DNA from: Verrucomicrobia bacterium UBA3841
Lineage (GTDB): Bacteria > Verrucomicrobiota > Kiritimatiellia > RFP12 > UBA1067
Direction: 5' to 3'
Assembly: GCA_002392765.1 (NCBI GenBank)
Contig: DGHT01000015.1
Coordinates: 16,531 to 46,951, forward strand
Length of the DNA: 30,421 bases
Below, piece by piece: positions 6,394 through 29,878 of the stretch (the first letter of the stretch is position 1; every line of letters begins with the position of its first letter). The notes beneath the pieces are model-generated. The model made no database searches, was not told the origin of the DNA, and saw only the letters and a list, made by a program, of their open reading frames with translations. Made by a program: the position numbers and the translations under genes.

Positions 6394-8065
6394 CACCATG
6401 GTGTCCGACAAGATAAAATCCGGCAAGGAAAGGGCTCCGCACAGGAGTCTCCTTTACGCGACCGGCATGAAGAGCGCCGATATGAAAAAGCCGTTCATAG
6501 GCATCTGCAACAGCTATGAAAGTTTCGTTCCCGGACACTGCCATCTTTCCGGCGTAGGGCAGCTGCTCAAGAAATTCATAACAGAAGCCGGCGGCGTGCC
6601 GATGGAGTTCAACACGATTGCCGTGTGCGACGGCATCGCGATGGGGCACGACGGAATGAAATACTCTCTTCCCTCGCGCGAACTCATCGCCGATTCCGTG
6701 GAGACGATCGCCAAGGCGCATTGCTTCGACGCGATGATATGCGTCCCGAACTGCGACAAGATCGTCCCCGGAATGCTTCTGGGCGCATTGAGGACCGGGA
6801 TCCCGGTCATCTTCGCGTCAGGCGGCCCGATGGCCGCGGGAAAGCATCCGAAGACCGGTGCGGACAGCGATCTCAATTCCGTTTTCGAGGCGGTCGGCGC
6901 GGAATCCGTCGGCAAGATCACCGAAGCCGATCTCGCAAAGATCGAACGCACGAGCTGCCCCGGCTGCGGAAGCTGCTCGGGGATGTTCACCGCGAATTCG
7001 ATGAACTGCCTCTACGAGGCGCTGGGACTGGCGCTTCCGGGCAACGGCACCATCCTCGCGGTCGATCCCGGACGCATCGAGCATTTCAGGCGTTCGGCGA
7101 AAGCGATCGTGCGGATGGCGAAAGCGGGCGGACCTCTCCCGCGCGATCTCGTCACGAAGGAATCCCTCGACAACGCCATCACTCTCGACATGGCGATGGG
7201 CGGCTCCACGAACACCGTCCTCCACACTCTCGCGATCGCGCGCCAGGCGGGCGTCGATTTTTCGCTCGAGAGGATGAACGAACTTTCGGCGAGAACGCCG
7301 TACATCTGCAAGCTGGCGCCGTCCGGACACTACCACATCGGCGATCTCGACAAGGCGGGCGGCGTGATGGCGATACTGAAGCGCCTGGATCCGTCGCTTC
7401 TCCATCTCGACGCGCCGACGGTGTCCGGGAAGACGCTTGGCGCGCAGATAAAGGCGGCGAAGATACGCGACGACGACGTAATCCGCAAACTGGACAGCGC
7501 CTATTCCAAGGACGGCGGTCTTGCGGTCCTCTGGGGCAATCTCGCCAAGGACGGAGCCGTCGTCAAGAAGGGCGGCGTCGCGCCGTCCATGATGAAATTC
7601 ACGGGCAAGGCGATCTGTTTCGATTCCCAGGAGGAGGCGTGCGCCGGAATCCTTGCGGGGAAAGTGAAACCTGGCCACGTAGTTGTGATCCGCTACGAAG
7701 GTCCGCGCGGCGGACCCGGCATGCAGGAGATGCTCGCTCCGACTTCCTACATCATCGGACAGGGACTCGGCGAATCGGTTGCGCTGATAACGGACGGAAG
7801 ATTCTCGGGCGCGACCCACGGAGCGTGCGTCGGACACGTCTCGCCGGAAGCGGCGGAAGGCGGTATGATCGGTCTTCTGCGCGACGGCGACGAGATAGAA
7901 ATCGACATACCTTCGAGGAAGATCGAAGCGCACGTTGCGGCGAAAGAGATCGCAAAACGCCGCAAGGCCGCTCCGGAATGGAAGCCCAGAATCCGGCAGG
8001 GATGGCTGTCGCGCTACGCGCGTCTTGTCGGGAACGCTTCGACGGGCGCATCGCTTATTTGTTAA
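6386..8065 (+). CDS. ilvD: Dihydroxy-acid dehydratase
   Basis: Canonical IlvD N-terminus ([21 protein letters not shown]), CDKIVPGM, and [11 protein letters not shown] near the C-terminus. The start may instead be the ATG at 6398. Confidence 0.9.

Positions 8066-14340: not shown

Positions 14341-14344
<4 letters not shown>
13043..14344 (+). CDS. PLP-dependent aminotransferase, class I/II fold
   Basis: 433 aa. It has LNFPNNPTGYT and DDAYFGLVYE motifs typical of class I/II aminotransferases. Substrate is not assignable by eye. Confidence 0.75.
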
Positions 14345-15814
<1,470 letters not shown>

Positions 15815-15831
<17 letters not shown>

Positions 15832-16669
15832 TAAATTCGAGGCATACGCAAAAATCAACCTCTTTCTTGAGGTTCTCGGGAAGCGCGCGGATGGATACCA
15901 CGCGCTTCGTTCTTTAGTCGTCCCCGTGTCCCTGTCGGACACTTTGGCGATCCGGAAATCAGATACGATGCGCTCCTCCTTCGGCTTCGCCGACGATCTT
16001 TGCCTGAAGGCGGCGCGCGTCCTTTCCGGAGCCGTCGGCAGAGAACTCGGAGCGGACATATCGGGAATCAAACGCATCCCGGCCGGAGGCGGGCTGGGCG
16101 GCGGCAGTTCCGACGCCGCGGCCGTGCTCGACGCGCTTGATTCGATGTACGGTCTAGGGCTTTCGCGCGAGCGGCTCGCGGAAATCGCCGCGGATGTCGG
16201 TTCTGACGTGCCGGCGCTGGTTCTGTCGCGCCGCTGCGGCGCGGTGCTTATGGAAGGGCGCGGCGAAATCGTAACGCCCGTCGAGGGGTTTCCCCGTCTG
16301 CACTTCGTCTTGGTGAATCCCGGAGTTTTTTCGTCCACCGCGAAAGTTTTCGCAAAATGCAACTTTTGCGTGACAAACAGGCCTCCGATATTGTATAATA
16401 TATTGAACGCATTGAAAAAGGGCGATCTGGAAGGCGTCGCTGGTTCGTTCGCGAACGATCTGGAAGCTCCTGCGGTCGCGCTTGAGCCGCGTATAGGCGA
16501 GGTGCTCGGCGAAGTTAGAAGGGCGGGCGCTGTCGGCGCCGCGATGAGCGGCAGCGGTTCGACGGTGTTCGGTCTTGCGAGAGACGAGGCCCATGCGAAA
16601 GAGATTGCATCGGCGCTTGAAGGACGCGATTTGAAGGTTTGGTGCGTTCACAGCTGTCCCGTGGTGTAG
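15815..16669 (+). CDS. ispE: 4-diphosphocytidyl-2-C-methyl-D-erythritol kinase
   Basis: The N-terminus AYAKINLFLEVLGKRADGYH is typical of IspE, and the GHMP kinase motif is PAGGGLGGGSSDAAA. Candidate ATGs at 15809, 15812 and 15815 lie inside the upstream poly-Asp codons in another frame. Upstream of these, the listed ORF (15641..) is an out-of-frame read-through of the previous gene. Confidence 0.85.
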
Positions 16670-16728
16670 AGGCTGCACAGGAGATTTTGATTCTCTTGGT
16701 TCTGGTTCGATTCCAGACGGGACAACCA
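16655..16728 (+). tRNA. tRNA-Gln (anticodon UUG), CCA encoded
   Basis: Hand-folded cloverleaf. Acceptor: TGTCCCG / CGGGACA (U1:A72). D arm: GTGT-AGAGGCT-GCAC. Anticodon arm: GGAGA-TTTTGAT-TCTCT, with TTG at 16687-16689. Variable loop: 4 nt. T arm: TCTGG-TTCGATT-CCAGA. Discriminator A, then CCA. Confidence 0.85.
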
Positions 16729-16742
16729 TTTTCTCCCTCGCC

Positions 16743-16818
16743 GTTTCTTTTTTCTGTTGCCATTCGACGCGGGCTTATGATATAATCCTTGCGAACCTCA
16801 AATCAGGTTCAAAAACCC
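16743..16818 (+). repeat. Left copy of 76-bp perfect direct repeat
   Basis: gtttcttttttctgttgccattcgacgcgggcttatgatataatccttgcgaacctcaaatcaggttcaaaaaccc is identical base for base to 29776-29851. The flanking bases differ on both sides. Confidence 0.95.
16757..16786 (+). promoter_or_regulatory. Sigma70-like promoter inside the left repeat
   Basis: TTGCCA (16757-16762), 18-nt spacer, TATAAT (16781-16786). The geometry matches the pcnB promoter. It faces the M48 gene. Confidence 0.45.
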
Positions 16819-16887
16819 GAAATAAAATGATCAAGTCCAGAAGAACGGGAGGGCGGCCGTCCCCGGCCGTCGAAACGGATCGAGGAA

Positions 16888-17781
16888 ATGAACTACAGAG
16901 AATTCATACACCCGGAGGACGAGGCGGCATTGCGCAATCTTGAGGCCGTTCCTGGTTTCGATACTGTCGCGCGCTTCATCCTGGAACATTTCACGGAAGA
17001 CATGATGCATGGTCTCTATATGGCGCAGAATGTACGCCTGTCGCCGTCGCAACTTCCGGAAATATTCAATCTGTTGCCGCCGATATGCGGAAAATTCGAA
17101 ATTGAATTGCCGGAATTTTACCTCACGATGGATCCTAGACCCAACGCCTGGACGATTGGCGACAAGCGCAAGTTCATCGTATTGACGAGCGGACTTCTTG
17201 ACCACATCGCCGACAAGGATGAATTGCAGTCCATAATCGCGCATGAATGCGGACACATTGTATGCCGGCACGTGCTGTACAACACCATTGCAATGCTGCT
17301 GGTGAAATTTGGCGAGAGCCTGGGCTTTGGCCGGATTGTCATCGCACCTATTCTCCTGGCCATAAAATATTGGCAGCGGCGCAGCGAGCTTTCCGCAGAC
17401 AGGGCGAGCGCGGTGTACACCGGCGGTCACGAAGTTCCGTGCCGTGCCCTGTTGAGGATATGCGGCGGACCTGACAACTTGACGAAAAACATCAACCTTC
17501 CGGAATATGCCGAACAGGCAAAGGCGTACGATGCATTGGTTGCAAAGAGCAAGTGGAACAAACTTCTTCAAAACATGGCGATAATGGATGCAGACCATCC
17601 TTTTGCCGCTGTTCGCGTACGAGAATTGTTGTCCTGGGCGGGTAGCGAACAGTTTGCGAAACTAAAGCAGGCGATGTCTGCGGCGGAAGTCTTGCCAATG
17701 TGTCGGAAGTGCGGACGGCGCATTGCTGCCGATGCGAAATTCTGCAGGTACTGCGGCAATAATTTGAAAGGAGAGAAGTGA
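16888..17781 (+). CDS. M48-family zinc metallopeptidase with C-terminal zinc ribbon
   Basis: HECGH at 17242-17256 is preceded by NAWT..FIVLTSGLL and followed by ELSADR (third zinc ligand region), as in the M48/HtpX-like family. The C-terminus is CRKCGRRIAADAKFCRYCG (CxxC-x10-CxxC). Confidence 0.75.
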   Translation: MNYREFIHPEDEAALRNLEAVPGFDTVARFILEHFTEDMMHGLYMAQNVRLSPSQLPEIFNLLPPICGKFEIELPEFYLTMDPRPNAWTIGDKRKFIVLTSGLLDHIADKDELQSIIAHECGHIVCRHVLYNTIAMLLVKFGESLGFGRIVIAPILLAIKYWQRRSELSADRASAVYTGGHEVPCRALLRICGGPDNLTKNINLPEYAEQAKAYDALVAKSKWNKLLQNMAIMDADHPFAAVRVRELLSWAGSEQFAKLKQAMSAAEVLPMCRKCGRRIAADAKFCRYCGNNLKGEK

Positions 17782-18020
17782 TGGGTATTGTGGAGAAACT
17801 GGACGAACTTGTCCAGAAGTCGGCGTCGTTCCGGAAAATAATGGAGGACGGCGTGGTTGAAGACAGCGAAGTTGAAGAGCAGGCAAAGCGGGTTGAGACG
17901 CTGCTTGCGGAGCTGGAGCGGAGTCTTTCGCCCGGTGATTTCGAGCGGGTCGCTGAGTTTATGGCAGAACTTTCGGTGCTGCAGGTGATCCTGCGCTACA
18001 ATCAGATTGGAGGACGGTGA
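17781..18020 (+). CDS. Small acidic, predicted helical protein
   Basis: 79-aa ORF whose ATG overlaps the upstream TGA (TGATG). No motif recognised. Support comes from operon packing only. Confidence 0.4.
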   Translation: MGIVEKLDELVQKSASFRKIMEDGVVEDSEVEEQAKRVETLLAELERSLSPGDFERVAEFMAELSVLQVILRYNQIGGR

Positions 18021-18021
18021 C

Positions 18022-18522
18022 ATGGCTTTCGCTTCGCAAATGAAATTCAACGTTTCGCCGAGCTGCATTCCGCACATGGCAAAGGCATTGGAGAATGCGC
18101 TCAGGGAAGAGGGATATGATACGAAGTGCGACACATTGTTGAACGGCGACGTTGTCGTTTCGCTGACAAAAGGAGGAATGTTCAAGGCTGTTGTCGGAAT
18201 GAAAACCGCGCTCAAAGTGGAGCTTCGCGCCGACTGCGGAAGCGTCCTTGCCAAGACGGGCGTCGGCATCTGGGGCCATCAGATAGTGCCAACCGTAATC
18301 ATGCTCCTCTGGTTCTGGCCTGTACTCATTACGCAGATATGGGGTCTTGTGCAGCAAAGCCGTCTTGACGCGCACGTGATGGATATCCTGTCCAGGGCGG
18401 TGTCCGGCGGGATGGACGCAATAGACGTTCCATCAGAGGACGTTTCCTCTGCCCGCTTTTGTTCCGAGTGCGGCAAGCCTGTCCACGGCAATTTCTGCTC
18501 CAACTGCGGCGCGAAGGTGTAA
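18022..18522 (+). CDS. Single-pass membrane protein with C-terminal zinc ribbon
   Basis: ATG at 18022, 8 nt after GGAGG (18009-18013). One hydrophobic helix (IVPTVIMLLWFWPVLITQIWGLV). The C-terminus is CSECGKPVHGNFCSNCG. Confidence 0.55.
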   Translation: MAFASQMKFNVSPSCIPHMAKALENALREEGYDTKCDTLLNGDVVVSLTKGGMFKAVVGMKTALKVELRADCGSVLAKTGVGIWGHQIVPTVIMLLWFWPVLITQIWGLVQQSRLDAHVMDILSRAVSGGMDAIDVPSEDVSSARFCSECGKPVHGNFCSNCGAKV

Positions 18523-18532
18523 GGAGGGGTTG

Positions 18533-20800
18533 ATGAACGGAATGGTGTTTGCGTTCAAGACGGCCGTGTACCTTGCGTTCGGGGCTTTGACGACCGCTGC
18601 AATGCTGCTTGTTATGGTGCGGGCGGCTCGGAATAAGTATGCGATGATATTGATTGGCGTATTTCTCTTCATCGCAGGGTTTGTTACATATTTCTCTCCG
18701 GTTGAGTCTTGCGGCAAAGCAGGCGGCTCGCACGGGATTCCCGGCAGTGCGAATGACTGCGCCCGTCCTGTGTCTGCAAATACGAATGAATGTTTGCGCG
18801 CAAACGCATGTATGGCGGATTCGACGCAAAACACTGCGGACGACATCTCCGCAGGCGGATGCGTTTTCATTAAAAACGGTGCAAAATCACTGTCGTCGGT
18901 GAACAGGACTCTCTCGGCTTTTTATCCGTCAAGAGGGGAGTACGACGACACGCCTCCACCAGGCTGGGGCGGGCTGAAATACTGGCTGTTCCATCTCGCC
19001 GCGATTCTTTATATCTTGACACTTGCGGTTTCCTACTTCGGTATTGAGCTGATCAACGCGGCGTCGCTGTGGATGCGCAAACAGGCGAAAAAATGGCGAC
19101 TCGGCGCATTCGTGCGGCAATCGGAATTGAATGTGTTCTGGGATGCGGGGCAGGAATCGGAAGCATTGGCCGGACAGATGCCGTCGAAAAGCGTCGTTTT
19201 CGCAATCGCAGCCGGCGGACGGTCGTGGCGTAAACTTCAGGACGACGATGCGATATGCAGACTTGTTCGCAAGGGTGTGTTGTGGATTTCTTCCGATTCC
19301 AAAACCAATCGCAGACTGCTGACAATCGCAAGACGCCATTTCTTCATCGGTCCGGACTGCCATGAAAACGTTGTGAAGGCGCAGAAATATGTTCAGTTTT
19401 TGTATGACGAAAACATTCGGCATAAGGTCGATGTGTATGTTCGCGTGTGGTCGGATGCCGATGATGACGCCGTCTACGCATGGGCGGACAAATGGAACGG
19501 CAGGTTTTCGAAAGAAGGATTCCTGACGCAGATAAACGTTCTGCGCGAAGAGTCCATCGTCTCCAGGAGATTCCTTGTAGACCATCCAATGCTGGATTGT
19601 CCCGGAGTGAGAGTTTCCGATTGCCATACGGCTTCTGTCGCAGGCGAATTCAAGTTGCTTGTTGTCGGCTTTGGCGTTCAGGGAGAGCGGCTTATGGGCG
19701 ACATGATCTGCGATGCGCAATTCCCGGACGGGAAAGGCGGCGCGATTCCGGTTTCCGTCGATGTGGTTGACAGGGACGATGCGTCGTTTGGATGGTGGAA
19801 GGCGAACTGCAAAGAGGCGTGTGCGCGGTATGGAATCCATTTCGAGAACTGTGCCGCCGAAAGCGACCGCTTTTGGAGGTTTATTGAAAGCCGTTGTGTG
19901 TACAACCGGATTGTGATCAGCACTCATGACGACATCTTGAATCTCCGGTTGGCGAACGACATTGCCAATTACTATGCTAAACGGTATAGGATGGATTATG
20001 CGGTACTGCGCAATACAATCTTCGCGCGCGTTCGCAGACCTTCGCTGTCCAAGGTGCTTTGCGGCGGCATGGCGGACAGATATCAGCTGTTCGGCGATGT
20101 ACTGGACACGTATTCTCCGAAATGGCTGCTGAACGACTCGTGGGACGATGGAGCAAAATTCATCAACGGTGTCTGGAGCGCCGTGTACGATGAAGATTTC
20201 AGGAAGCTTCCCGACGGGGCGGACGTGATCAGATGGTACCTCGACAATATGGATCGCGGCGAGAAATACTGGGCGGCAAGGCCAATGCTCGACAAGGAAT
20301 CTTCCCGTGCGTCGTTCTTGCACATGAGAAACATTTTGCGTCTGATGGGATATGAGTGCAGGCGTGACATGCCAACGGATGAGAATGCAGGGATAAAACA
20401 GCTGGAGATACCGGAAAACCAGAAGGAGGAGTTGAAATGCGCGGCCGGGGACGCAAAGCGCCGGGAGAAGCTTGCCGAGTCGGAACATTTGCGATGGATG
20501 GCCTTCCATTTTGTCCGGGGCTGGGAGAAGTGGAGCCCGACCGAGGACGAGCTTGAGAAGCTCTCCAACGGCGGCAAGAACAGAGTCGAGCCTAACAGCA
20601 TGAAGAGTCGTGCTCGCATACACGCGAACCTTGAGGATTTTGCCAGGCTGGACGAGGTTGACGAGAAGTTCAACATGATTAACAGGAAGAATGGCAGGGA
20701 GTCTGTTAATTCGAAGGACAAGGACATAAACATCATATATGGCATCGAAGCCATTTACGCGACCGGCTTTCGCGTGTTCAAAAAGGCGTGTGACACGTGA
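18533..20800 (+). CDS. Membrane protein with Rossmann-like (TrkA-N/RCK-like) region and C-terminal RyR-like domain
   Basis: ATG 5 nt after GGAGG (18523-18527). About three N-terminal hydrophobic helices. VVGFGVQG glycine-rich motif (GFGVQG at 19667-19684). The C-terminus EHLRWMAFHFVRGWEKW...IHANLEDFARLDEVDEKF...DKD resembles the RyR-domain pattern of the next gene. Confidence 0.55.
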   Translation: MNGMVFAFKTAVYLAFGALTTAAMLLVMVRAARNKYAMILIGVFLFIAGFVTYFSPVESCGKAGGSHGIPGSANDCARPVSANTNECLRANACMADSTQNTADDISAGGCVFIKNGAKSLSSVNRTLSAFYPSRGEYDDTPPPGWGGLKYWLFHLAAILYILTLAVSYFGIELINAASLWMRKQAKKWRLGAFVRQSELNVFWDAGQESEALAGQMPSKSVVFAIAAGGRSWRKLQDDDAICRLVRKGVLWISSDSKTNRRLLTIARRHFFIGPDCHENVVKAQKYVQFLYDENIRHKVDVYVRVWSDADDDAVYAWADKWNGRFSKEGFLTQINVLREESIVSRRFLVDHPMLDCPGVRVSDCHTASVAGEFKLLVVGFGVQGERLMGDMICDAQFPDGKGGAIPVSVDVVDRDDASFGWWKANCKEACARYGIHFENCAAESDRFWRFIESRCVYNRIVISTHDDILNLRLANDIANYYAKRYRMDYAVLRNTIFARVRRPSLSKVLCGGMADRYQLFGDVLDTYSPKWLLNDSWDDGAKFINGVWSAVYDEDFRKLPDGADVIRWYLDNMDRGEKYWAARPMLDKESSRASFLHMRNILRLMGYECRRDMPTDENAGIKQLEIPENQKEELKCAAGDAKRREKLAESEHLRWMAFHFVRGWEKWSPTEDELEKLSNGGKNRVEPNSMKSRARIHANLEDFARLDEVDEKFNMINRKNGRESVNSKDKDINIIYGIEAIYATGFRVFKKACDT

Positions 20801-21084
20801 TGAACGATGGCTATATCCCCCGTCCTCTCGACACATCGGACATATCCCTGCCCGAATCGCTCGTTGCGCTAATCGAGGCGTTGGCGGAGAATGTGCATGA
20901 CACATGGGCCAAAGGGCGAATGGACGGGGGCTGGACATACGGTCCGGTCCGCGACGACGCGAAGAAACAGCACCCCGGCCTAGTCCCGTACGCCGATCTC
21001 CCCGAATCCGAAAAGGCATACGACCGCGCCACGGCAATTTCGACGCTGAAGTTCATCTGCAAGAAGGGGTATTCTATCAAATGA
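20800..21084 (+). CDS. Stand-alone RyR-domain protein
   Basis: 94 aa. LAENVHDTWAKGRMDGGWTYGPVRDDAKKQHPGLVPYADLPESEKAYDRAT matches my memory of the RyR (ryanodine receptor repeat) domain consensus. TGATG overlap upstream and ATGA overlap downstream. Confidence 0.7.
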   Translation: MNDGYIPRPLDTSDISLPESLVALIEALAENVHDTWAKGRMDGGWTYGPVRDDAKKQHPGLVPYADLPESEKAYDRATAISTLKFICKKGYSIK

Positions 21085-22415
21085 CAGCTAATGAAGAACA
21101 TAGATGCCTGACGGAGTTCAAGGAACATCATTGGGACATGCTGCTTGATTACATCGGGCAGGGGCGTGTAGTGCCTGTATTAGGTCCGGAACTTTTGGTC
21201 GCAAATGAGGCGGGGCGAAGTGTTCCGTTCTATCAGGAGGTCTCTAGACGACTTGCACATCACTTCGACATGCCTGAAATTGAATCTGAGACGGTTAATG
21301 ATTTCATGTCCCGTTTTTTGAAGGGGAACAATACGGTAAAGATGGCTCGAACCGGCTTAATTAAGGTGTTGAAGGAACTCGAAGATCAACCGCAACCGTC
21401 TCTTCGGAAACTGGCATCGATAAATGCCTTCAAACTCTACCTGACGACAACGCCGGATAATCTGCTTGCAAAGGCATTGACCGCTTGCGGGACAGATCCT
21501 GATGTGTACTTCTTTAGTACCAATTACAAGCGCCGGAGCGACTTGCCGGACAAAAAACTGCTAGGTCGCCAACGTTACATTTATCACCTCTATGGGAAAG
21601 CTGCGCCATGTTTTGAGTATGCCATTTCAGAGGACGATCGCCTCTTGTTTTCGTGCGAATGGATGGATTCGCAGGTTAAGCCGAGGAATCTGCTGTCTTA
21701 TTTGGCGGACAAGTATCTATTGATTCTCGGATGCGGGTATGAAAATTGGCAAGCGCGCTTTTTCCTGTTTGGACTTAAGGGGGCGGAGTTGTTCTCCAAC
21801 ATTTGGGATGCAAGCAGCCTGTTGGCGGATTCGCACACCCGAAATGATGCCCAGCTTGACCGATTCCTCTCAAGGTGCAGAGGGAATATCTATTACGAAG
21901 GCGGGGCGATCAAGTTCGTGGACGAACTTTGCAAACGATTGGAGAATACTCCTGCCGTACCGTCAGAGAGGGAGGGTGATACGTTTGAGAAGGGCAGCAT
22001 CTTTATCAGCTATGCCAGCGAGGACAAAGAAGCCGCGCTCAAGATCAAGCGGCGCTTGGAGTCGTTTAGTCTTCCTGTTTGGCTTGACAAGTTTAGATTG
22101 GAAAGCGGTTCTGACTACGATGCGCGCATAGAGAACAACATAAGGAACAGCGCGCTCTTTATCCCAATCCTTTCTCAAACGACTGCGCAGACGGCTGAAC
22201 CACGCTACTTCCGCAAGGAATGGAATATTGCCGTAGACCAGTCGCTTAGGAGCTCCCCGAAAATTCCTTTTATTCACCCCATCGCACTTGATGGCGTCGA
22301 ACCTTGCGACAACATTCCCGGTGCGATAAATAAGGTTCATTGGATACACGCGCCAGGAGGCGAACTGAATGAATGCGACATTGACCGGCTTATTGATCTG
22401 ATCGCACAACTGTAG
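21081..22415 (+). CDS. SIR2-like (SIR2_2-type) domain fused to a C-terminal TIR domain
   Basis: The N-terminal half has, in SIR2_2 order, VVPVLGPELL, YLTTTPDNLL, IYHLYGK and LLILGCGYENWQARFF. The C-terminal part (from 21993) is TIR-like: IFISYASEDKE...LPVWLDKFRLESGSDY...ALFIPILSQ...YFRKEW. The listed ORF start at 20904 is an out-of-frame extension into the RyR gene. Confidence 0.65.
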   Translation: MTANEEHRCLTEFKEHHWDMLLDYIGQGRVVPVLGPELLVANEAGRSVPFYQEVSRRLAHHFDMPEIESETVNDFMSRFLKGNNTVKMARTGLIKVLKELEDQPQPSLRKLASINAFKLYLTTTPDNLLAKALTACGTDPDVYFFSTNYKRRSDLPDKKLLGRQRYIYHLYGKAAPCFEYAISEDDRLLFSCEWMDSQVKPRNLLSYLADKYLLILGCGYENWQARFFLFGLKGAELFSNIWDASSLLADSHTRNDAQLDRFLSRCRGNIYYEGGAIKFVDELCKRLENTPAVPSEREGDTFEKGSIFISYASEDKEAALKIKRRLESFSLPVWLDKFRLESGSDYDARIENNIRNSALFIPILSQTTAQTAEPRYFRKEWNIAVDQSLRSSPKIPFIHPIALDGVEPCDNIPGAINKVHWIHAPGGELNECDIDRLIDLIAQL

Positions 22416-22426
22416 GAGGCGTGTAT

Positions 22427-25400
22427 ATGTCTAATAATGTTTTCAAGTCCGCGTGGCCAGGTCTGAATTCCTACGAAGAGGAAGATCAATCCCGTTTCTT
22501 CGGAAGGGACAGGGAGATTGATCTTTTGAAGGATGTCATCGGCACTGAATCGTTATGTACGATTTACGGTGTTTCCGGCGTCGGGAAGACATCCCTGTTG
22601 CAGGCTGGTGTTTTCCCAGAGTTGCGGGCGCGTTGTTTCCTGCCAGTGTATTTGCGTCTGGGACATGACAAAATTGACAGGCCGTATGCAGCCCAAATCA
22701 TTGAAGGATGCCTCGCGGCGGCGCGGAAGTCAAGACTTGAGGTGGTAGAGACATGTCAGGCGCTGGGGGCGTCCGAACATGAGACGCTATGGGAATGGTT
22801 TCACAGGCATGAATTTTTGAACGCCGTCAAGAAAGTCGTGCGCCCGGTTCTTGTCATCGACCAGTTCGAGGAAGTGTTCACACAGGGGAGTGACAAGGCT
22901 GAAAAAGAGTCTTGGTTTGATGAATTGACCGACCTGTGTTCCAACAGCGTTCCGGAATCTGTTGCAGATTTCATGTCTAATTCTGAAAATGATTTGGCTT
23001 TCCAAACAGAGAACCAGACCTGGCGCACGGTAATCTGTTTGAGAGAAGATTTTCTCTCGCGTCTAGAAGAGCGAACTGTTGAGTACCCGATATTCAAGCG
23101 GAACCGCATATCAATAGGGCCGTTGAGTGCCGAAAACGCAATAGAGGCGGTACTGAAAGGCGGAGATGGAATTGTCGATCTGACAGTCGCCGAATGTATC
23201 GTAAGGTATGTAGGAGGTTCGGCCGGGAAAATTGAGACCCCATTGCTTTCGTTGTTTTGTTCGCGTCTTGACATCCTTCGGCAAAGGGCTGGGTTGCCGA
23301 AGATCTCGCAGGAACTCGTCGAAGGAAACAAGGGTAAGATACTGAACAGTTTCTACGATGAATCGATGGGGCTTGTTTCGGCGTCATCCCGCGACTATCT
23401 TGAGGCGAATCTTCTGAACGAGGGGGGCTACCGGACGCCGGTACAACTCGATGAGGCGGAACGGAACGGTGTCCGGCCCGAAGAATGGAAAACACTTGAA
23501 AGAGTTCGCCTGTTACATGTGATTTCACGTGACAATGTACAGTGGTTGGAATTTAGTCATGACACCTTGGCGCCGGTTGCGAAAAGCGCACTTGAAAGGC
23601 GAAAAGCGGACAGGGAACGGCATGTGATGCAGGAGAAGTTGGCTCGTTCACGTCGTCGCACCAGAAGGCTCTTCTATGCATTTGTCGGCTTTGTCGGCTT
23701 TATATGCATCGCATCGTTTGCAACGTGGTTTCTGTTCTACAAGGAACATGTTGCGTACTATAGGGAATTTACCAAGAAATGGGGATGTCCAGTTGGGGTC
23801 GGTGCGCCGCTTACGATGGAACAGGTGCGCCACAGGGAATGCAGTTTTAGAATGAAGCGAAAGGGTCTGTATTCGCGGCGCGGCTTCCATTTTGAACCCA
23901 CCTATGCATATCGCGTCGAGGCTGTCAACGGTCGTCTGCAACCGACGACCGCACATGGGATGGTGACGTATTTGTGGGGAGGGGAAAATACAGCAAAACA
24001 GATGCAGAAAGAATTGGATAAGCGGAATTCAAATTATAAAGGGGACGCAAAAAGCGTTGGTAAAGACAACGCAAATGACAACCGCAAAAGTGGCTATTTG
24101 ACGTCAACGAAACTGGGAACAGTTTGCACATGGGAATTCATGTGTGACAAAGATGGTTTGCCGGAACGCGAAATCGGCTATGACGAAAAGGGCGAAATAG
24201 TATGGATGATGCCGTATGCCGTGGAAGCCACTGCAAATAGCGGGAAGCCAGAGTCTGCGATTGTGCATTTTACAATGAAAGACAGTTATTCGGTGAGACA
24301 GCGGCTGGACGATGCAGAATATGTAAGAATAACATACGACGATAAAAGCGGTTATGAAACAAAATACGAGTTCCTCGATAGGTATGGTAATGAAACCATA
24401 GGACCGGATGGTGTGTATGCGCGATCTCGAGAGTATTATTCTTCGGGGCGACTTAAGAAGCACGCCTCTTTGGATGTAGCAGGGAATTACATCATTGACC
24501 TGGCTGGGAATACAGGCCTGCGGTATGAGTATTCAGATGACAATCGGGAAATGCGCGTCACATCATTTGGTACAAACGAAGAGGCAAAGGCTTTAAACGA
24601 TGGATGGGTAAAATGTGTGCAGCGATATGACGAATGGGGAAATCTTGCGGAGCAAAGTTTCTACGATGCGACAAATCGGCTGGCTCTTTCCGATGGATGG
24701 CCGAGTGCCATCGTTGAAAGGGATTCCTATGGTCTCAAACAATCAGTGACATTGAGGGGGCAGATGTCCAATGGAGAAGATTTGGAACAATATGTTCTTT
24801 TTGATGTCGAGGGCAATGCGACAAACGTAGTGTGGCGCAATGCAAATGACAAAAGACCTAGCTGTAAGCCGGGAACTGAAGTACACATGATCTGCCGAGA
24901 GTATGCAGGCAAGGACAGGGCTTCGGTCGAGTGGTATTTAGATGTGAATAATGAGGCGATCACAAATGAATATGGCGTTGCCAGGGATGTGAGTATATAT
25001 GACACATCAACAGGCATGCTCGACACGAATAACCTTTACGCCCTGCCAGGACAAGGTGGAGCGCTAGGATACACCAATGTCCATCATTCATGTACGAGTT
25101 TTGATGGGTTCGGAAACCAGACCGGAGAAAGGTATTTTGATGCGGATGGGAATCCTACTGCGGATAACAACGGTGTATTTGAGTGTAAGTACTTGTGGCA
25201 GGGTGGCTATAAGGTTAGAGATGACTACCTTGCGCCGAATGGCAAAGGCGGGGTTGGGGGCGGCACAAACGTGCATCACATGGTGAAAATCTACAAGACA
25301 GTCAATGGTGCGAATCTTTGCGTGTGCGAGAAGTATTATGGTTGCGACGAAAGCCCGGTCGCGAACAATTACGGCGTAGCGAGAGTGGAATATACGTATG

Positions 25401-26440
25401 ACACAGCCGGCGTTGAAAGACGCCGAGATATGTATTCGGCGGATGCCGCCGGAGGAATCTGGGGGTGCACAAATCTATGCCATGTACTTGAGACGCGTGA
25501 TGAAAGGGGAAACACCGAGACGCAGCAGTGTTTTGACAGGGATGGGCGATATGTCGCATCTGACGGCACTGGGATGGTTGTTGGTCGTATGTCTTACTTT
25601 CCCGGTTCAGGCGATAATCCGCCCGTCATATCCATGCTTGATGGTTTCTCAATGCCGACGGTTGGCTTTGGCAATGACGGAAGAAGATGCAGGGTGACGC
25701 GATTCTACCGTAAAGACGGAGGAGAAAGAAGGACTGAAGAAGTAGATTTCAGCGGTAATCGCCATATTGAGGAAAAGAATACTGACGGTAATGTCACCTC
25801 CGAGGAGTTTGCGGGTGCGAAAGATGGTGGAATTGCCGATTTCAGTCTGCACGGAGTGGCTAAAATCAATCGGTGTTATGGTATAAAACCTGCCACTTTG
25901 TTTGAGCGTATATTCGGTGGGGGAGTCAAGCATAAGGACATTTGTGTGCGCGAAATGTATCTTGATTCATCGGGGAATCCGGTCGTCAATCGTTTTGGTA
26001 TCGCGGGATGGCGCAAGGATACGGATTACTCATCCGGCAAAATTGGGAATACCTTGTACTTTGATGTTTCAAGTAATGAAATGAAAGTTGCCGTAGGCAG
26101 GATTGTGACACCCAGCAGGGTTAGACCGCTCGGTATGGCTGACAAGAATGGAATCAAGGTTGGCGATATAATCTGTCACTACAACGATTATGATATATTG
26201 CGTTCCTCCTTGGATGTCATGGAACAAGTCGTTTCAACCGGGATGAACGATAATAAACGGATTGTCATCGGCAGAAGAAATAAGAATGGCCAATACGACA
26301 TAATCCCATATATATTGCCTCCCGGTGTACTTAATTTTAATCTGGTTGATGTGCCGATTAGCGAGGAGTATTATAAAGAACTTGAACACGACTATAAGGC
26401 GTATCAGGCGTATTGCGAAAAAGAAAGCGGGATGAAGTAA
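22427..26440 (+). CDS. STAND-class P-loop NTPase with TM helix, YD/RHS-like repeat region and PDZ-like C-terminus
   Basis: ATG 7 nt after AGGAGG (22414-22419). The lead-in WPGLNSYEEEDQSRFFGRDRE is followed by Walker A GVSGVGKTS (22568-22594) and Walker B VLVIDQFEEVF. RRRTRR precedes the hydrophobic helix LFYAFVGFVGFICIASFATWFLFY (23669-23740). About 24100-26070 carries repeated YD..GN / FD.DGNP.....GV motifs. The C-terminal part is GIKVGDII...GRRNKNGQYD...LVDV. Confidence 0.7.
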   Translation: MSNNVFKSAWPGLNSYEEEDQSRFFGRDREIDLLKDVIGTESLCTIYGVSGVGKTSLLQAGVFPELRARCFLPVYLRLGHDKIDRPYAAQIIEGCLAAARKSRLEVVETCQALGASEHETLWEWFHRHEFLNAVKKVVRPVLVIDQFEEVFTQGSDKAEKESWFDELTDLCSNSVPESVADFMSNSENDLAFQTENQTWRTVICLREDFLSRLEERTVEYPIFKRNRISIGPLSAENAIEAVLKGGDGIVDLTVAECIVRYVGGSAGKIETPLLSLFCSRLDILRQRAGLPKISQELVEGNKGKILNSFYDESMGLVSASSRDYLEANLLNEGGYRTPVQLDEAERNGVRPEEWKTLERVRLLHVISRDNVQWLEFSHDTLAPVAKSALERRKADRERHVMQEKLARSRRRTRRLFYAFVGFVGFICIASFATWFLFYKEHVAYYREFTKKWGCPVGVGAPLTMEQVRHRECSFRMKRKGLYSRRGFHFEPTYAYRVEAVNGRLQPTTAHGMVTYLWGGENTAKQMQKELDKRNSNYKGDAKSVGKDNANDNRKSGYLTSTKLGTVCTWEFMCDKDGLPEREIGYDEKGEIVWMMPYAVEATANSGKPESAIVHFTMKDSYSVRQRLDDAEYVRITYDDKSGYETKYEFLDRYGNETIGPDGVYARSREYYSSGRLKKHASLDVAGNYIIDLAGNTGLRYEYSDDNREMRVTSFGTNEEAKALNDGWVKCVQRYDEWGNLAEQSFYDATNRLALSDGWPSAIVERDSYGLKQSVTLRGQMSNGEDLEQYVLFDVEGNATNVVWRNANDKRPSCKPGTEVHMICREYAGKDRASVEWYLDVNNEAITNEYGVARDVSIYDTSTGMLDTNNLYALPGQGGALGYTNVHHSCTSFDGFGNQTGERYFDADGNPTADNNGVFECKYLWQGGYKVRDDYLAPNGKGGVGGGTNVHHMVKIYKTVNGANLCVCEKYYGCDESPVANNYGVARVEYTYDTAGVERRRDMYSADAAGGIWGCTNLCHVLETRDERGNTETQQCFDRDGRYVASDGTGMVVGRMSYFPGSGDNPPVISMLDGFSMPTVGFGNDGRRCRVTRFYRKDGGERRTEEVDFSGNRHIEEKNTDGNVTSEEFAGAKDGGIADFSLHGVAKINRCYGIKPATLFERIFGGGVKHKDICVREMYLDSSGNPVVNRFGIAGWRKDTDYSSGKIGNTLYFDVSSNEMKVAVGRIVTPSRVRPLGMADKNGIKVGDIICHYNDYDILRSSLDVMEQVVSTGMNDNKRIVIGRRNKNGQYDIIPYILPPGVLNFNLVDVPISEEYYKELEHDYKAYQAYCEKESGMK

Positions 26441-26508
26441 TGACATCTAAGCGAACGCTTACGGGTTTCCGCGGATTATATCCGGCATATTAGGTTGTTT
26501 TGCGACAG

Positions 26509-26542
26509 ATGCGGAGCATGCTCCGCATTATTATTGTGTTTT
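26509..26542 (+). terminator. Putative intrinsic terminator closing the 7-gene operon
   Basis: Perfect 20-bp palindrome atgcggagcatgctccgcat (26509-26528), immediately followed by tattattgtgtttt. Confidence 0.55.
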
Positions 26543-26565: not shown

Positions 26566-27060
26566 GTGCAAAATGAGGATTTGAACATGATAGATCGTCC
26601 TTATGGGCTTAAGTGGCTTTGGCAATGGAAAGACCATGAGCCGATAAAAGTCGTCACCGGCATACGACGGTGCGGCAAATCGACATTGCTTTCAATGTTT
26701 CAGGAGCAATTGCGCGAAGACGGCATCAACGCCGATCAGATTGTCGCAATCAACTTTGAGCATCCGGATTTCATGGAACTTGACAATTCCGCCGCCGTAT
26801 GGAAATACTTGAAGCCGAAAATTGCCCAGGGACGAAATGCATACGTTTTCCTTGATGAAATTCAGCGTGTAAGAGACTTTGAAAAGGTGGTTGACGGACT
26901 TTTGTGCTGCCTGGCGTTGATGTCCTGTTGCGCTTGATGCCGTGGTACGATACATCTTCGACAACATCGGGAATCTCACGAGCATGCGGAATATCGCGAC
27001 AGTCCTGAAGTCTGAAGGCGTTTCAATTGATGCTTCTTCTGTTGAGGACTATGTCTCCGC
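26566..27060 (+). pseudogene. Decayed AAA_14 / DUF4143-family ATPase gene
   Basis: The N-terminal fragment has Walker A GIRRCGKST and Walker B VFLDEIQ, then a premature stop at 26935-26937. A second fragment in another frame (from 26942) reads VRYIFDNIGNLTSMRNIATVLK..SVEDYVSAL, like the DUF4143 part. Intact family members are, from memory, roughly 400 aa. Confidence 0.6.
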
Positions 27061-27063
27061 CCT

Positions 27064-27112
27064 GTGCGGCACGGGCGGTCGGCGGCGAATGGCGTTGCGA
27101 TCGTGTATAGTC
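27064..27112 (+). pseudogene. 49-nt fragment of a histidine phosphatase gene 5' end
   Basis: Ungapped alignment to 29067-29115 matches at 42 of 49 nt, including 27 of the first 28. It translates to VRHGRSAANGVAIVYS against VRHGRSAANEDPTVYS in the intact gene. There is no start codon in frame. Confidence 0.7.
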
Positions 27113-27212
27113 TACGGTATTGGCGATGTAGTTTAAGAATTTTGTGAAATTTAAGTTGGAAATTGCAAGATAAATGTGGCGATAAAACTGTACCATCTAT
27201 TGGAGTTGCGAA

Positions 27213-29018
27213 ATGAACAAGTCACAACAATACGATATCTTCATTTCATACCGCCGCGAGGGCGGATATGACACGGCGCAGCTGCTGTACGACCGGTTGA
27301 CGCAGATGGGCTATCGCGTGTCGTTCGACCTGGAGACGCTGCGCGGCGGGAAGTTCAACACGCAGCTCTACCGGCGCATCGAGCAATGCTCCGACATGCT
27401 TGTCATCATGAGCAGGGATTCTCTTAACCTTCGCGAGAATCACGAGGACGACTGGTTCCGGCTGGAGATCGCCCACGCGCTGAAGCACAAGAAGAACATC
27501 GTCCCCGTGTTCCTGCGTGACTTCAAGTTCCCTCAGAAAGGGGAGTTGCCAGACGATATAGCCGACCTGGTGGACTATCAGGGCGTCACGGCGTCGCAGG
27601 AACATTTCGACAGTGTGCTGAATCGGATATGCAGGAACTTCAAGGCGAAGCCCCATCGGCGCAAATGGCCGGTAGTCGCCGCCATTGCCGCAGCTCTTCT
27701 TGTCGGCGCGGGGATTGGAGTCTGGTTGAAGGCAGACAAGATTTTCCCGTATCCTTTTACCAGAGAGGCAAGACAGGAGGTTGATGCATACTATGGAACT
27801 GTGTTGCGGATTGGGGCCGCCTACAATGAATTTCTGTCCGCAAAGATGGAACTTCTTGACAAGGTCAGTTTGAGTATAGAAGCTGAAGACAAGGCGCCAT
27901 ATCAAGCCGCCGTACCAGAGTTCTTGCATCGACGCGGAATGGCGAGAAAAAATCTCGACGCCGCTGCTGAGGCGTTGGAAAGAGTTGTCAAGGAGAACCC
28001 CGGATTGCGTGTGGATCGCGCATACATACCGAATTTCCTGGAGGGGGTACGACAGGAATTCGGCGATGCGGATGAGTGGGCTGCTCTTTTCAGCCTCCCG
28101 TGTGATCCTGATTACGTATGCTCAAAGGCAAACAGGATTAGGATTGTCATGCTCAATCGCAAGGAGATTGAGATATATGCCGACGTGTTTGCCTATGGCG
28201 TCATGTTCCTTTTCGACATGATTTCGCCGGAAGCGCTCGCTGACTTTAGGGAAGTCGCGGCAAAACAGTGGACGATGTTGAAGCGGTTCAGAGGTGAATG
28301 GCTGTCAGATCAAAAGCAGATTGAACAGAATGGCGAGGCTTCGCTGAACCAGCTTCAAGAAGTGGTCGAGGAGCGTGCGCAGATAATAGGAAATACGGCA
28401 CAGGCCCTGGAGCAGGCTAAGCGCAACACCAGGCAAATGAGAATGGACGCGGGAATGTCGCCGGAACAAGCCGAGAGAATCGGCAAGAAGGAGGAGGAGC
28501 TTGAGAATTTGAAGGCGCAGAGGAAAGAGACGCAAAAAGCGATAGCGGATGCACGAGAGCGGCTCCGCAAGAAGTTCGCGCCGAAGGATGATGACGACAT
28601 TGGAATACTCTGGGGCAAGGCGTTGCGGTTCATGTCAGTCAATATGCCGGAGGAGGCGAAGCGGTGTGCAGATGTTTTGCGTCGGCGCAATACGCCGGAT
28701 TTCCCGCCATCGGCGATAGACACCGCGGAGGCGATCATCCTGTCTAAAGGCGCGTTGCCGTTTGTGGGTGGTGTCTTGGTTTGTTCATACGAACCGCCGG
28801 CTACGTCTCATGCGATATTCAAAATCGGAGACGTCGTCACGGAAGTGAACGAGAAACCATGTCTGTACTTCGAGGATTACAGCAGCAAGGCCGGCAACAC
28901 CTACACGATATACCGTCGAAACGCGAAGGGCCAGTTTGACAAGCTGACGGCAACCATGCCTGAAGGCCAGCCGCGTGTGGCTCTGGTGGATTTGGCGGAG
29001 AAGGGCGACCGCAAGTAG
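27213..29018 (+). CDS. TIR domain - TM helix - coiled-coil region - PDZ-like C-terminal domain protein
   Basis: GGAG lies 7 nt upstream of the ATG. TIR start YDIFISYRREGGYD...VIMSRDSL...DDWFRLEIAHAL...IVPVFL. KAKPHRRK precedes the helix WPVVAAIAAALLVGAGIGVWL (27666-27728). A charged heptad-like stretch runs about 28300-28580. The C-terminus is IFKIGDVVTEVN...YRRNAKGQFD...LVDL. Confidence 0.75.
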   Translation: MNKSQQYDIFISYRREGGYDTAQLLYDRLTQMGYRVSFDLETLRGGKFNTQLYRRIEQCSDMLVIMSRDSLNLRENHEDDWFRLEIAHALKHKKNIVPVFLRDFKFPQKGELPDDIADLVDYQGVTASQEHFDSVLNRICRNFKAKPHRRKWPVVAAIAAALLVGAGIGVWLKADKIFPYPFTREARQEVDAYYGTVLRIGAAYNEFLSAKMELLDKVSLSIEAEDKAPYQAAVPEFLHRRGMARKNLDAAAEALERVVKENPGLRVDRAYIPNFLEGVRQEFGDADEWAALFSLPCDPDYVCSKANRIRIVMLNRKEIEIYADVFAYGVMFLFDMISPEALADFREVAAKQWTMLKRFRGEWLSDQKQIEQNGEASLNQLQEVVEERAQIIGNTAQALEQAKRNTRQMRMDAGMSPEQAERIGKKEEELENLKAQRKETQKAIADARERLRKKFAPKDDDDIGILWGKALRFMSVNMPEEAKRCADVLRRRNTPDFPPSAIDTAEAIILSKGALPFVGGVLVCSYEPPATSHAIFKIGDVVTEVNEKPCLYFEDYSSKAGNTYTIYRRNAKGQFDKLTATMPEGQPRVALVDLAEKGDRK

Positions 29019-29775: not shown

Positions 29776-29851
29776 GTTTCTTTTTTCTGTTGCCATTCGA
29801 CGCGGGCTTATGATATAATCCTTGCGAACCTCAAATCAGGTTCAAAAACCC
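29776..29851 (+). repeat. Right copy of 76-bp perfect direct repeat
   Basis: Identical to 16743-16818. Confidence 0.95.
29790..29819 (+). promoter_or_regulatory. Sigma70-like promoter inside the right repeat
   Basis: TTGCCA (29790-29795), 18-nt spacer, TATAAT (29814-29819). It lies 59 nt upstream of the ATG at 29879, which has GGAGG upstream. Confidence 0.45.
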
Positions 29852-29878
29852 TAAAGACCCGAAAATGGAGGTGTGGAG

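Follow-up and report, generated by a model that had tools for sequence, protein, structure and literature searches.

Here we describe an operon of seven co-directional genes in the gut bacterium Verrucomicrobia bacterium UBA3841, in which a membrane protein with a divergent RyR domain at its C-terminus, a solo RyR protein and a TIR protein are encoded back to back. The operon occupies positions 16888 to 26440 of the stretch that was analysed, called the window below: 30,421 nt of assembly GCA_002392765.1 (contig DGHT01000015.1, positions 16,531 to 46,951 of the forward strand). All coordinates are those of the window unless a surveyed locus is named. We consider it reasonably probable that the region is a defence system of the Thoeris-like, TIR-signalling kind, with the RyR domain as the sensor and a membrane RCK protein, here designated F755, as the effector. 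The Thoeris logic is invoked because TIR protein(s) and a candidate effector carrying a nucleotide-binding domain are encoded in one operon. The features at the core of this reading, including the transmembrane (TM) segments and the nucleoside triphosphatase (NTPase), are the following.

18533 to 20800, plus strand: F755, a 755-residue membrane protein with three predicted TM helices, a tandem Rossmann/RCK (TrkA-like) body and a divergent RyR domain.
18560 to 19060, plus strand: membrane region of F755, comprising a TM1-TM2 hairpin (residues 10-58), a disordered loop, the motif FPSRG (130-135) and TM3 (148-176).
19628 to 20092, plus strand: second Rossmann domain of F755, with GFGVQG (19667-19684) and a conserved VVD that ends strand 2.
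20453 to 20797, plus strand: C-terminal divergent RyR-fold domain of F755 (residues 641-755).
20800 to 21084, plus strand: solo RyR protein of 94 residues, with the predicted ligand residues His33, Trp36, His58 and Asp75.
21081 to 22415, plus strand: SIR2-like and TIR_2 protein of 444 residues, with the TIR domain at about 21999 to 22364 and the catalytic-position Glu380 at 22218 to 22220.
22421 to 26440, plus strand: nSTAND1 NTPase, 1339 residues if translated from the GTG at 22421 and 1337 if from the ATG at 22427.

Neighbouring genes in the operon overlap or lie no more than 11 nt apart. The F755 open reading frame (ORF) begins with an ATG at 18533 behind the sequence GGAGGGG and stops with the TGA at 20798-20800; the solo RyR gene starts at the ATG at 20800 in the shared TGATG, a 1-nt overlap, and stops with the TGA at 21082-21084, and the SIR2-like-TIR gene follows from the ATG at 21081 with a 4-nt ATGA overlap. 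The positions and sequences of these ORFs, and the stop/start overlaps that run from F755 through the solo RyR gene into the TIR gene, are as they had been described in an earlier, sequence-only reading of this DNA.

That reading took the 94-residue ORF for essentially a single RyR repeat, and the hidden Markov model (HMM) search supports this very strongly: the protein matches Pfam PF02026 over profile positions 1 to 90 of 91 with an E-value of 3.5e-34 and 117.3 bits (cut-off 27.4). It also matches every RyR structure in the PDB, with E-values down to 5e-68, among them the solo RyR protein of Bacteroides thetaiotaomicron, 3NRT (E 3.9e-33 in the PDB sequence search), and it matches RyR2 with per-repeat E-values down to 5e-20. 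Homologues are 71-87% identical among the best 120 matches and 55-84% identical across phyla in the genome survey described below.

RyR proteins of phages provide a functional precedent. RyDEP, the gp78 protein of mycobacteriophage DyoEdafos, is a glycosidase that linearises the cyclic ADP-ribose (cADPR) isomers 2'cADPR and 3'cADPR, while other phage RyR homologues and RyR Tad (Pectobacterium phage CB1 gp68) are sponges whose dissociation constants for 2'/3'cADPR lie in the nanomolar range; this work is contained in two 2026 preprints and deals with phage proteins only (PMC13232231; 10.64898/2026.06.04.730250). RyDEP contacts its ligand through His75, Trp78, His100 and Asp117 (PMC13232231; 10.64898/2026.06.04.730250). 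The corresponding pocket of the animal R12 domain takes up adenine nucleotides (ATP/ADP) (PMC12627627). The solo RyR protein of the window shares 34% identity with RyDEP, whose four contact residues align with His33, Trp36, His58 and Asp75, so that the RyDEP catalytic dyad of His75 and Asp117 corresponds to His33 and Asp75. In the alignments, all four ligand residues of the phage proteins are kept in both RyR proteins of the window. A RyDEP-like, phage-encoded anti-defence context (for example the NARP1 operon) was not found here; the solo RyR gene lies on what looks like a chromosomal island with TIR genes of its own.

The second RyR domain, at the C-terminus of F755, is harder to recognise. 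The sequence-only reading had the 755-residue protein end in an RyR-related segment, and this segment, which includes EHLRWMAFHFVRGWEKW (residues 651-667), belongs to a genuine but divergent RyR domain. It scores below the gathering threshold of the Pfam RyR model (11.7 bits, E 0.31) and matches the solo RyR protein with a BLASTP E-value of 0.006. When its profile was compared with that of the solo-RyR alignment, the match extended over the full domain, with two insertions, at hhalign probabilities of 73-79% (E 1.6e-5 to 3.1e-5). When an AF2 model of the domain was compared with the PDB, the top 18 matches were all B. thetaiotaomicron RyR proteins (Foldseek probability 0.72-1.00, and at least 0.9 for the top 17), followed mainly by the R12 and R34 domains of animal RyRs. 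In addition, distant members of the superfamily exceed the Pfam RyR threshold at the matching position, with 28-29 bits. The assignment is made because the profile-profile, fold and distant-relative tests agree. None of the 41 family sequences departs from His652, Trp655, His697 or Asp731 in this domain, and these four residues align with the ligand residues of RyDEP.

F755 itself found no family in scans of Pfam, NCBIfam or PADLOC, and a PDB sequence search returned noise. It has 41 clear homologues, and a family profile retrieves 3,009 cluster representatives at E <=1e-3 and 1,440 at E <=1e-10 from 1.84 billion proteins (50%-identity clusters); by the measure of these searches, this is a sizeable family without a description. 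The AlphaFold model of F755 (predicted local distance difference test score 85.6, predicted template modelling score 0.82) has a body of two Rossmann-type domains followed by the helical C-terminal domain. Hydropathy identifies three hydrophobic helices (residues 10-32, 34-58 and 148-176), in agreement with the three or so TM helices counted earlier, and the FPSRG motif between the second and third is nearly invariant in the family. The tandem Rossmann body matches the TrkA gating ring (4g65/4j9v) over approximately 410 columns with a Foldseek E-value of 3e-6 and a probability of 1.00. The first Rossmann domain is degenerate. The second carries the GFGVQG motif that the sequence-only reading had picked out as Rossmann-type; the motif (residues 379-384) is invariant or nearly so in the 41 homologues, the conserved VVD closes the strand that follows, and GFGxQG...VVD is by its sequence a classical dinucleotide-binding signature. 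The proposed TrkA-N relationship holds for the fold and not for the HMM: TrkA_N (PF02254) gives no F755 match at E-values up to 10 and TrkA_C gives none either, one of 51 superfamily members matches PF02254 (E 1e-3), and distant F755 relatives show weak matches to Slo-like RCK domains. F755 is assigned to the TrkA/RCK type because of the Foldseek match.

Both TIR proteins of the window, the SIR2-like-TIR protein and a 601-residue protein encoded further downstream, match PF13676 (E 5e-19 and 7.8e-15), and both retain the glutamate of a TIR alignment column that is 90% conserved; the first also matches the NADase AbTir. The sequence-only reading had labelled the first protein SIR2-TIR. Its N-terminus scores 17.2 bits against PF13289, below the cut-off of 24.5, whereas its orthologues in loci L031, L045 and L066 pass (39.7, 39.0 and 26.4 bits), and the SIR2-like label is kept because they do. 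Canonical SIR2 enzymes carry the asparagine of a TTNYD-type motif and the histidine of an xHG motif. In the alignment of this family there is a TT-x-x-D without a conserved asparagine, and Y/F-G-K takes the place of HG; an active SIR2 NADase was rejected on this mismatch, and the SIR2-like domain may thus not be an active NADase. The NTPase encoded next matches PF20703 over residues 12-287 (E 2.8e-30, 106.7 bits, cut-off 27.1). A TM helix follows the NTPase module at residues 414-438 (of the ATG-start protein), and the approximately 900 residues behind it match no family apart from a weak C-terminal PDZ hit. The helix and the long C-terminal region suggest that the sensor part lies across the membrane, which would be unusual among STAND proteins.

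The sequence-only reading had staked its proposal on bacterial RyR genes being enriched near TIR genes, and this is what the neighbourhoods show. A solo-RyR alignment was searched against one genome per GTDB species, which gave more than 567 relatives; the best 80 loci were taken with 10-kb flanks, and their ORFs, called in six frames from stop to stop, were searched with purpose-built HMMs for RyR, the F755 family and TIR. A TIR ORF lies within 10 kb in 36 of the 73 loci with a stand-alone RyR gene, within 3 kb in 24, and directly adjacent in 13. Most TIR ORFs (58/67) are on the RyR strand, and their density is 1.19 per 10 kb within a kilobase of RyR and drops to 0.2-0.3 at 8-10 kb. The mean around RyR is about 57 TIR ORFs per Mb, which by our own estimate, rather than by a matched control, is far above ordinary genomes. 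TIR signalling systems are reported in approximately 8% of genomes (10.64898/2025.12.03.692087).

F755 relatives are a second recurrent neighbour. A group of proteins of about 700 residues adjoins RyR in 27 loci; these are distant relatives of F755 (hhalign probability 99.1%, E 4e-19) and likewise end in an RyR-like segment. A member of this F755 superfamily is present in 49 of the 80 RyR loci and is adjacent to or fused with RyR in 35. Taken together, 37 of the 80 loci contain a TIR gene, 22 contain both TIR and a superfamily member, and 64 at least one of the two. The neighbours in the 16 loci with neither partner are not hidden F755 relatives (hhalign below 1%), and they also provide a negative control to set beside the 99% match. 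The Bacteroides loci L064 and L076, which are of the 3NRT type, lack both a TIR gene and a neighbour of the 755 type.

Neighbourhoods anchored on F755 itself give a corresponding picture, with TIR genes in 10 of 14 loci and up to nine in one; the types include TIR-STING, TIR-kinase and TIR-TPR-STAND. In L004 (1-22043) and L092 (1072-7644) F755 relatives lie within arrays of up to nine TIR genes, where TIR is combined with FGE-sulfatase, protein kinase, Fe-hydrogenase-like, methyltransferase, Sel1, TPR and STING modules, an arrangement that would fit many TIR sensors around a single putative effector. The pairing of a SIR2-like-TIR gene with an nSTAND1 gene recurs in L031, L032, L045 and L066 (anchored on RyR) and in L086 (anchored on F755), always among RyR genes, as sampled from loci anchored on one or the other. 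RyR accompanies many TIR architectures, most of them without STAND.

RyR domains are also found fused to other proteins. In L057 and L050 a canonical RyR domain is joined in one chain to the C-terminal side of the divergent RyR of the membrane protein, and the resulting tandem reproduces the arrangement of animal R12. Further fusions involve a papain-like (C39-like) peptidase with conserved cysteine and histidine, a PrsW protease and an AAA module, and a TIR gene directly follows the peptidase-RyR fusion in five loci. Some members of the F755 superfamily carry lipase-like (Mbeg1-like or phospholipase-like) or HD domains.

The sequence-only reading cast both RyR and Rossmann modules as receptors for a nucleotide made by TIR. 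The RyR half of that idea has gained HMM support, clustering with TIR genes, nucleotide binding by the phage homologues and retained ligand residues; the Rossmann half is read from the GxGxxG...D motif. The system might work as follows. On infection the nSTAND1 NTPase, together with the sensor regions of the other TIR proteins, would activate the TIR domains, which would turn NAD+ into cyclic or otherwise modified ADP-ribose. The RyR module would bind this signal, probably as an R12-like pseudo-dimer of the solo RyR protein and the C-terminal RyR domain of F755, or as homodimers. Binding would rearrange the RCK ring, the three-TM domain would open or disrupt the membrane, and the infection would be aborted. 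A second input, for instance the level of NAD(H) or adenine nucleotides, may enter through the Rossmann GxGxxG site, and a conserved gene triad headed by an M48 protease would be a further partner of the RyR module.

Several points weigh against this scheme. The signal, its binding and the defence phenotype are all things that we infer. The survey covers the 80 loci closest to the RyR protein of the window (55-84% identity) and is biased to close relatives, and the TIR density was obtained with no matched background. The three-TM region of F755 has no recognisable pore or selectivity motif. By sequence a sensor cannot be told from a degrader, as the His/Asp dyad of RyDEP is present, and the TIR protein and nSTAND1 could form a self-contained, NAD+-depleting (Avs-like) system that needs no receptor. 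Finally, 27 of the 49 loci with RyR and a 755-like protein show no TIR gene within 10 kb, which implies that the pair can work without a TIR gene in cis or may respond to something else. No recurrent partner emerged in these loci either, their 106 neighbouring ORFs being heterogeneous housekeeping genes.

The first alternative, which we regard as unlikely, assigns the solo RyR protein the opposite role, that of a host-encoded brake. As a sponge or a RyDEP-like glycosidase acting on basal TIR product it would set the threshold of the system and reset it, which would leave the RyR-like domain of F755 alone, or some other protein, as the receptor. Ring nucleases play such a role in type III CRISPR. 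The solo RyR protein keeps the RyDEP dyad (His33, Asp75) and the binding residues; it is far more conserved (55-87% identity across phyla) than its partners, as expected if a small ligand is the main constraint, and there is one solo RyR gene per island even beside other RyR-fusion proteins. All stand-alone RyR proteins with a tested function are sponges or glycosidases (PMC13232231; 10.64898/2026.06.04.730250). The dyad, however, also occurs in non-catalytic sponges and in animal RyRs, which makes it silent on catalysis and no proof of activity in the solo RyR protein (PMC13232231). A brake is also at odds with the fusion of canonical RyR domains to the membrane protein (L057, L050), the peptidase, PrsW and AAA, which is the pattern of a regulatory sensor, and with the 27 pair loci, where there is no TIR product to buffer.

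The second alternative builds on the self-contained, Avs-like depletion of NAD+ by the TIR/SIR2-like protein and nSTAND1, and we think it improbable. The Rossmann site of F755 would sense the fall of NAD(H) or the rise of ADP-ribose, F755 would be a second-layer effector, and the role of RyR would be structural or lie in ATP/ADP sensing. TrkA-type RCK domains are regulated by NAD(H)/ATP; they are the best structural match of F755, whose GFGxQG...VVD signature is canonical and conserved. Animal R12 binds ATP/ADP (PMC12627627), proteins that combine STAND with TIR/SIR2 are known NADase effectors (PMC8195603), and the TIR domains of Avs were left out of the Thoeris survey on the grounds that they are NADase effectors (10.64898/2025.12.03.692087). 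Against this, the canonical Asn and His positions of SIR2 are not conserved, the TIR architectures next to RyR mostly lack STAND, and the RyR ligand tetrad is invariant in the 41 F755 family members, which argues for ligand binding over a structural role.

A last alternative, that F755 and the solo RyR protein serve a housekeeping function as a membrane module regulated by nucleotides, such as a controller of ion flux of the RCK type, and merely share an island with TIR genes, is very unlikely. In its favour, the RCK fold is typical of ion-transport regulators, no PADLOC model covers any of these proteins, and 27 of the surveyed pairs have housekeeping neighbours and no TIR gene within 10 kb. 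Against it, start/stop overlaps tie the pair to the TIR gene, most TIR ORFs share the RyR strand and their density peaks at RyR, TIR genes lie directly behind other RyR fusions, family members carry lipase-like or HD effector domains, the cassette resides on a repeat-flanked island of lower G+C content, and neither a K+ channel, a TrkH-type partner nor a selectivity-filter motif is present.

The proposed sensor-effector system can be compared with several known ones. With Thoeris (types I-XI; ThsB TIR synthases; ThsA, ThsC and later effectors) it shares TIR gene(s) with a catalytic-position glutamate and, in the same operon, a putative effector that carries a nucleotide-binding domain; membrane effectors are known in types II, V and VII, and several TIR genes per effector are typical. 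It differs in that the putative sensor is RyR (PF02026), the effector would be a three-TM tandem-RCK protein, the TIR domain shares a chain with a SIR2-like domain and its gene is coupled to that of nSTAND1, and the M48 triad accompanies the module. The likeness to RyDEP and RyR Tad lies in PF02026, in the 34% identity of RyDEP with its His/Trp/His/Asp set, and in what appears to be a small, dimer-forming protein of common fold. Whereas the phage proteins act in anti-defence and destroy or sequester the signal, those of the window are host-encoded, part of a TIR operon and paired or fused with effector-like modules, and F755 was not found in viral contigs. Animal R12 is very similar in sequence, and its tandem order recurs in the natural fusions, where a canonical RyR domain stands behind a divergent one; in the window, however, the repeats are on separate polypeptides, there is no Ca2+-release channel, and the three TM helices are unrelated to the RyR pore. 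The 'putative ryanodine receptor' proteins of B. thetaiotaomicron (3NRT, 6UAG and related entries) are stand-alone RyR proteins of about 100 residues and the best structural match of the F755 C-terminus, but no paper assigning them a function was found in the literature searched. TrkA/RCK gating rings share the tandem Rossmann fold and the nucleotide site of GxGxxG plus an acidic residue, while F755 joins its body to a three-TM segment of its own and to RyR and has no TrkH or channel partner. STAND conflict systems (nSTAND1 class; Avs-like) resemble the window in the nSTAND1 gene directly after a TIR/SIR2-like gene (PMC8195603), but here the TIR domain is on a polypeptide separate from the NTPase.

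The remaining features of the operon and its surroundings are listed below.

16743 to 16822, no strand: left copy of an 80-nt direct repeat, starting 14 nt past tRNA-Gln (16655-16728).
16888 to 17781, plus strand: M48 (HtpX-like) zinc metalloprotease with a HECGH motif and a C-terminal zinc ribbon; the first gene of the operon.
17778 to 18020, plus strand: acidic helical protein of 80 residues, without a family; the gene overlaps that of the M48 protease by 4 nt.
18007 to 18522, plus strand: protein of 171 residues that has a single TM helix (residues 93-115) and ends in a double zinc ribbon; translation could also start from the ATG at 18022.
26508 to 26529, plus strand: best terminator-like hairpin of the region, 68 nt past the STAND stop codon.
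27213 to 29018, plus strand: second TIR protein of the island, 601 residues, with an N-terminal TIR_2 domain that has the catalytic-position glutamate, followed by a TM helix.
29776 to 29855, no strand: right copy of the 80-nt repeat, identical to the left copy at 79 of 80 positions; the two bracket a 13-kb island.

The M48 protease (Pfam PF01435, E 2.9e-20; HtpX-like in NCBIfam) forms a triad with the 80- and 171-residue proteins, encoded upstream of F755, so that the module is larger than the sequence-only reading had it. The triad was found in 12 of the first 84 loci (Kiritimatiellae, Bacteroidales) as well as in L086 and L089, and it directly follows the solo RyR gene in three loci. It occupies 16888-18522 in the window, 4541-6319 in L016, 10292-12011 in L054 and 376-2124 in L056, with eight further loci. 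Weak matches of the 80-residue protein to CATASP (E 0.048) and JetA were dismissed as noise. A C-terminal double zinc ribbon (CxxC...CxxC) ends the M48 protease, the 171-residue protein and several peptidase-RyR fusions, which are otherwise unrelated (window 17700-17781 and 18440-18522; L032 7534-8682; L033 1677-2819; L039 4003-5145; L053 639-1787; L083 5997-7157), and it may be a common docking or sensing tail. In L088 a patatin phospholipase gene (6956-7966) takes the place of the two small triad genes before the 755-like gene, and a caspase-like Peptidase_C14 gene (15962-17503) lies behind TIR genes.

The operon probably ends at the terminator-like hairpin. The best promoter-like site of the region lies within the left repeat at 16757-16786 (TTGCCA-18-TATAAT with an upstream TG, 11 of 12 consensus matches), and each copy of the 80-nt repeat contains this near-consensus promoter. 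The block between the repeats also holds the second TIR gene and a histidine-phosphatase gene, and close homologues of the second TIR protein are encoded in the RyR islands L001 and L006. G+C content is 0.56-0.63 upstream and 0.45-0.55 within the block; the upstream genes are housekeeping genes (pheT, an aminotransferase and a GHMP-family kinase gene, possibly ispE). The block looks like a chromosomal island of approximately 13 kb beside tRNA-Gln, and the repeat pair resembles an island-insertion scar with a duplicated promoter region; no integrase gene was found between the two repeat copies. Between the operon and the second TIR gene lies an AAA_14 ATPase gene (26566-26937, and 26942-27136) that encodes 123 residues compared with 419 in its homologue in L006 (12870-14126), and it is probably a truncated or broken pseudogene. 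Upstream, at 14341-15831, a protein of 496 residues without a Pfam family has a signal-peptide-like N-terminus and approximately 23 aspartates at its C-terminal end.

The nearest relatives are found in Kiritimatiellae genomes from ruminant guts. A prophage or phage origin of the cassette was rejected, given the housekeeping flanks and an F755 family that has no confirmed match in 2.9 million IMG/VR viral contigs. Among 'phage' records the only close ones are two unverified scaffolds from viromes, and the RyR and 755-like pair is present in one of them. This record, L090 (MT836850.1, 'UNVERIFIED: Bacteriophage sp.'), comes from a human faecal virome, and its segment 7040-8493 holds a solo RyR gene of the host type and, behind it, an F755 relative; it could be either bacterial DNA within the virome or a mobile copy of the pair.

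Within the literature searched the host-side RyR-TIR module is new, with a new candidate sensor domain and a new candidate effector family. PADLOC-DB 2.0 and NCBIfam hold no model for the host RyR-F755 module, and RyR, PF02026 and TrkA are unmentioned in the text and four supplementary files of the catalogue of December 2025, which lists 29 putative Thoeris types, the parts of that source consulted here (10.64898/2025.12.03.692087). Nor is the RyR domain mentioned in a set of comparative-genomics papers from the Aravind group, and no discussion of host operons was found in the RyDEP paper (PMC13232231). Structures of bacterial RyR domains have been available since 2010 (3NRT), yet no assigned function was found in the literature searched.

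The place of host RyR domains, in TIR operons and paired or fused with effector-like proteins, is that expected of a signal receptor. The host versions are far more numerous than those of phages, and for their role the locus described here, with its relatives, offers a concrete answer that can be tested. A wider reading, which we put forward tentatively, joins these observations: bacterial RyR would be a native immune receptor for cADPR isomers made by TIR, comparable to SLOG, Macro, SAVED and CARF, within a widespread, uncatalogued Thoeris-like class in gut and rumen Kiritimatiellae, Bacteroidales, Clostridia and Planctomycetes, in which TIR sensor(s) would feed RyR-gated effectors (the RCK membrane protein, the papain-like peptidase, PrsW and possibly M48). 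The phage sponges and glycosidases would be the captured host receptor, and animal R12 would have descended from it, which would ground the debated link between cADPR and RyR. If the receptor role of host RyR is confirmed, TIR immunity gains a sensor domain and an effector family of approximately 3,000 clusters at 50% identity that has no Pfam model, a possible origin of the phage sponges is explained, and small bacterial proteins become available for studying the disputed direct action of cADPR-type ligands on the R12 domains of RyR.

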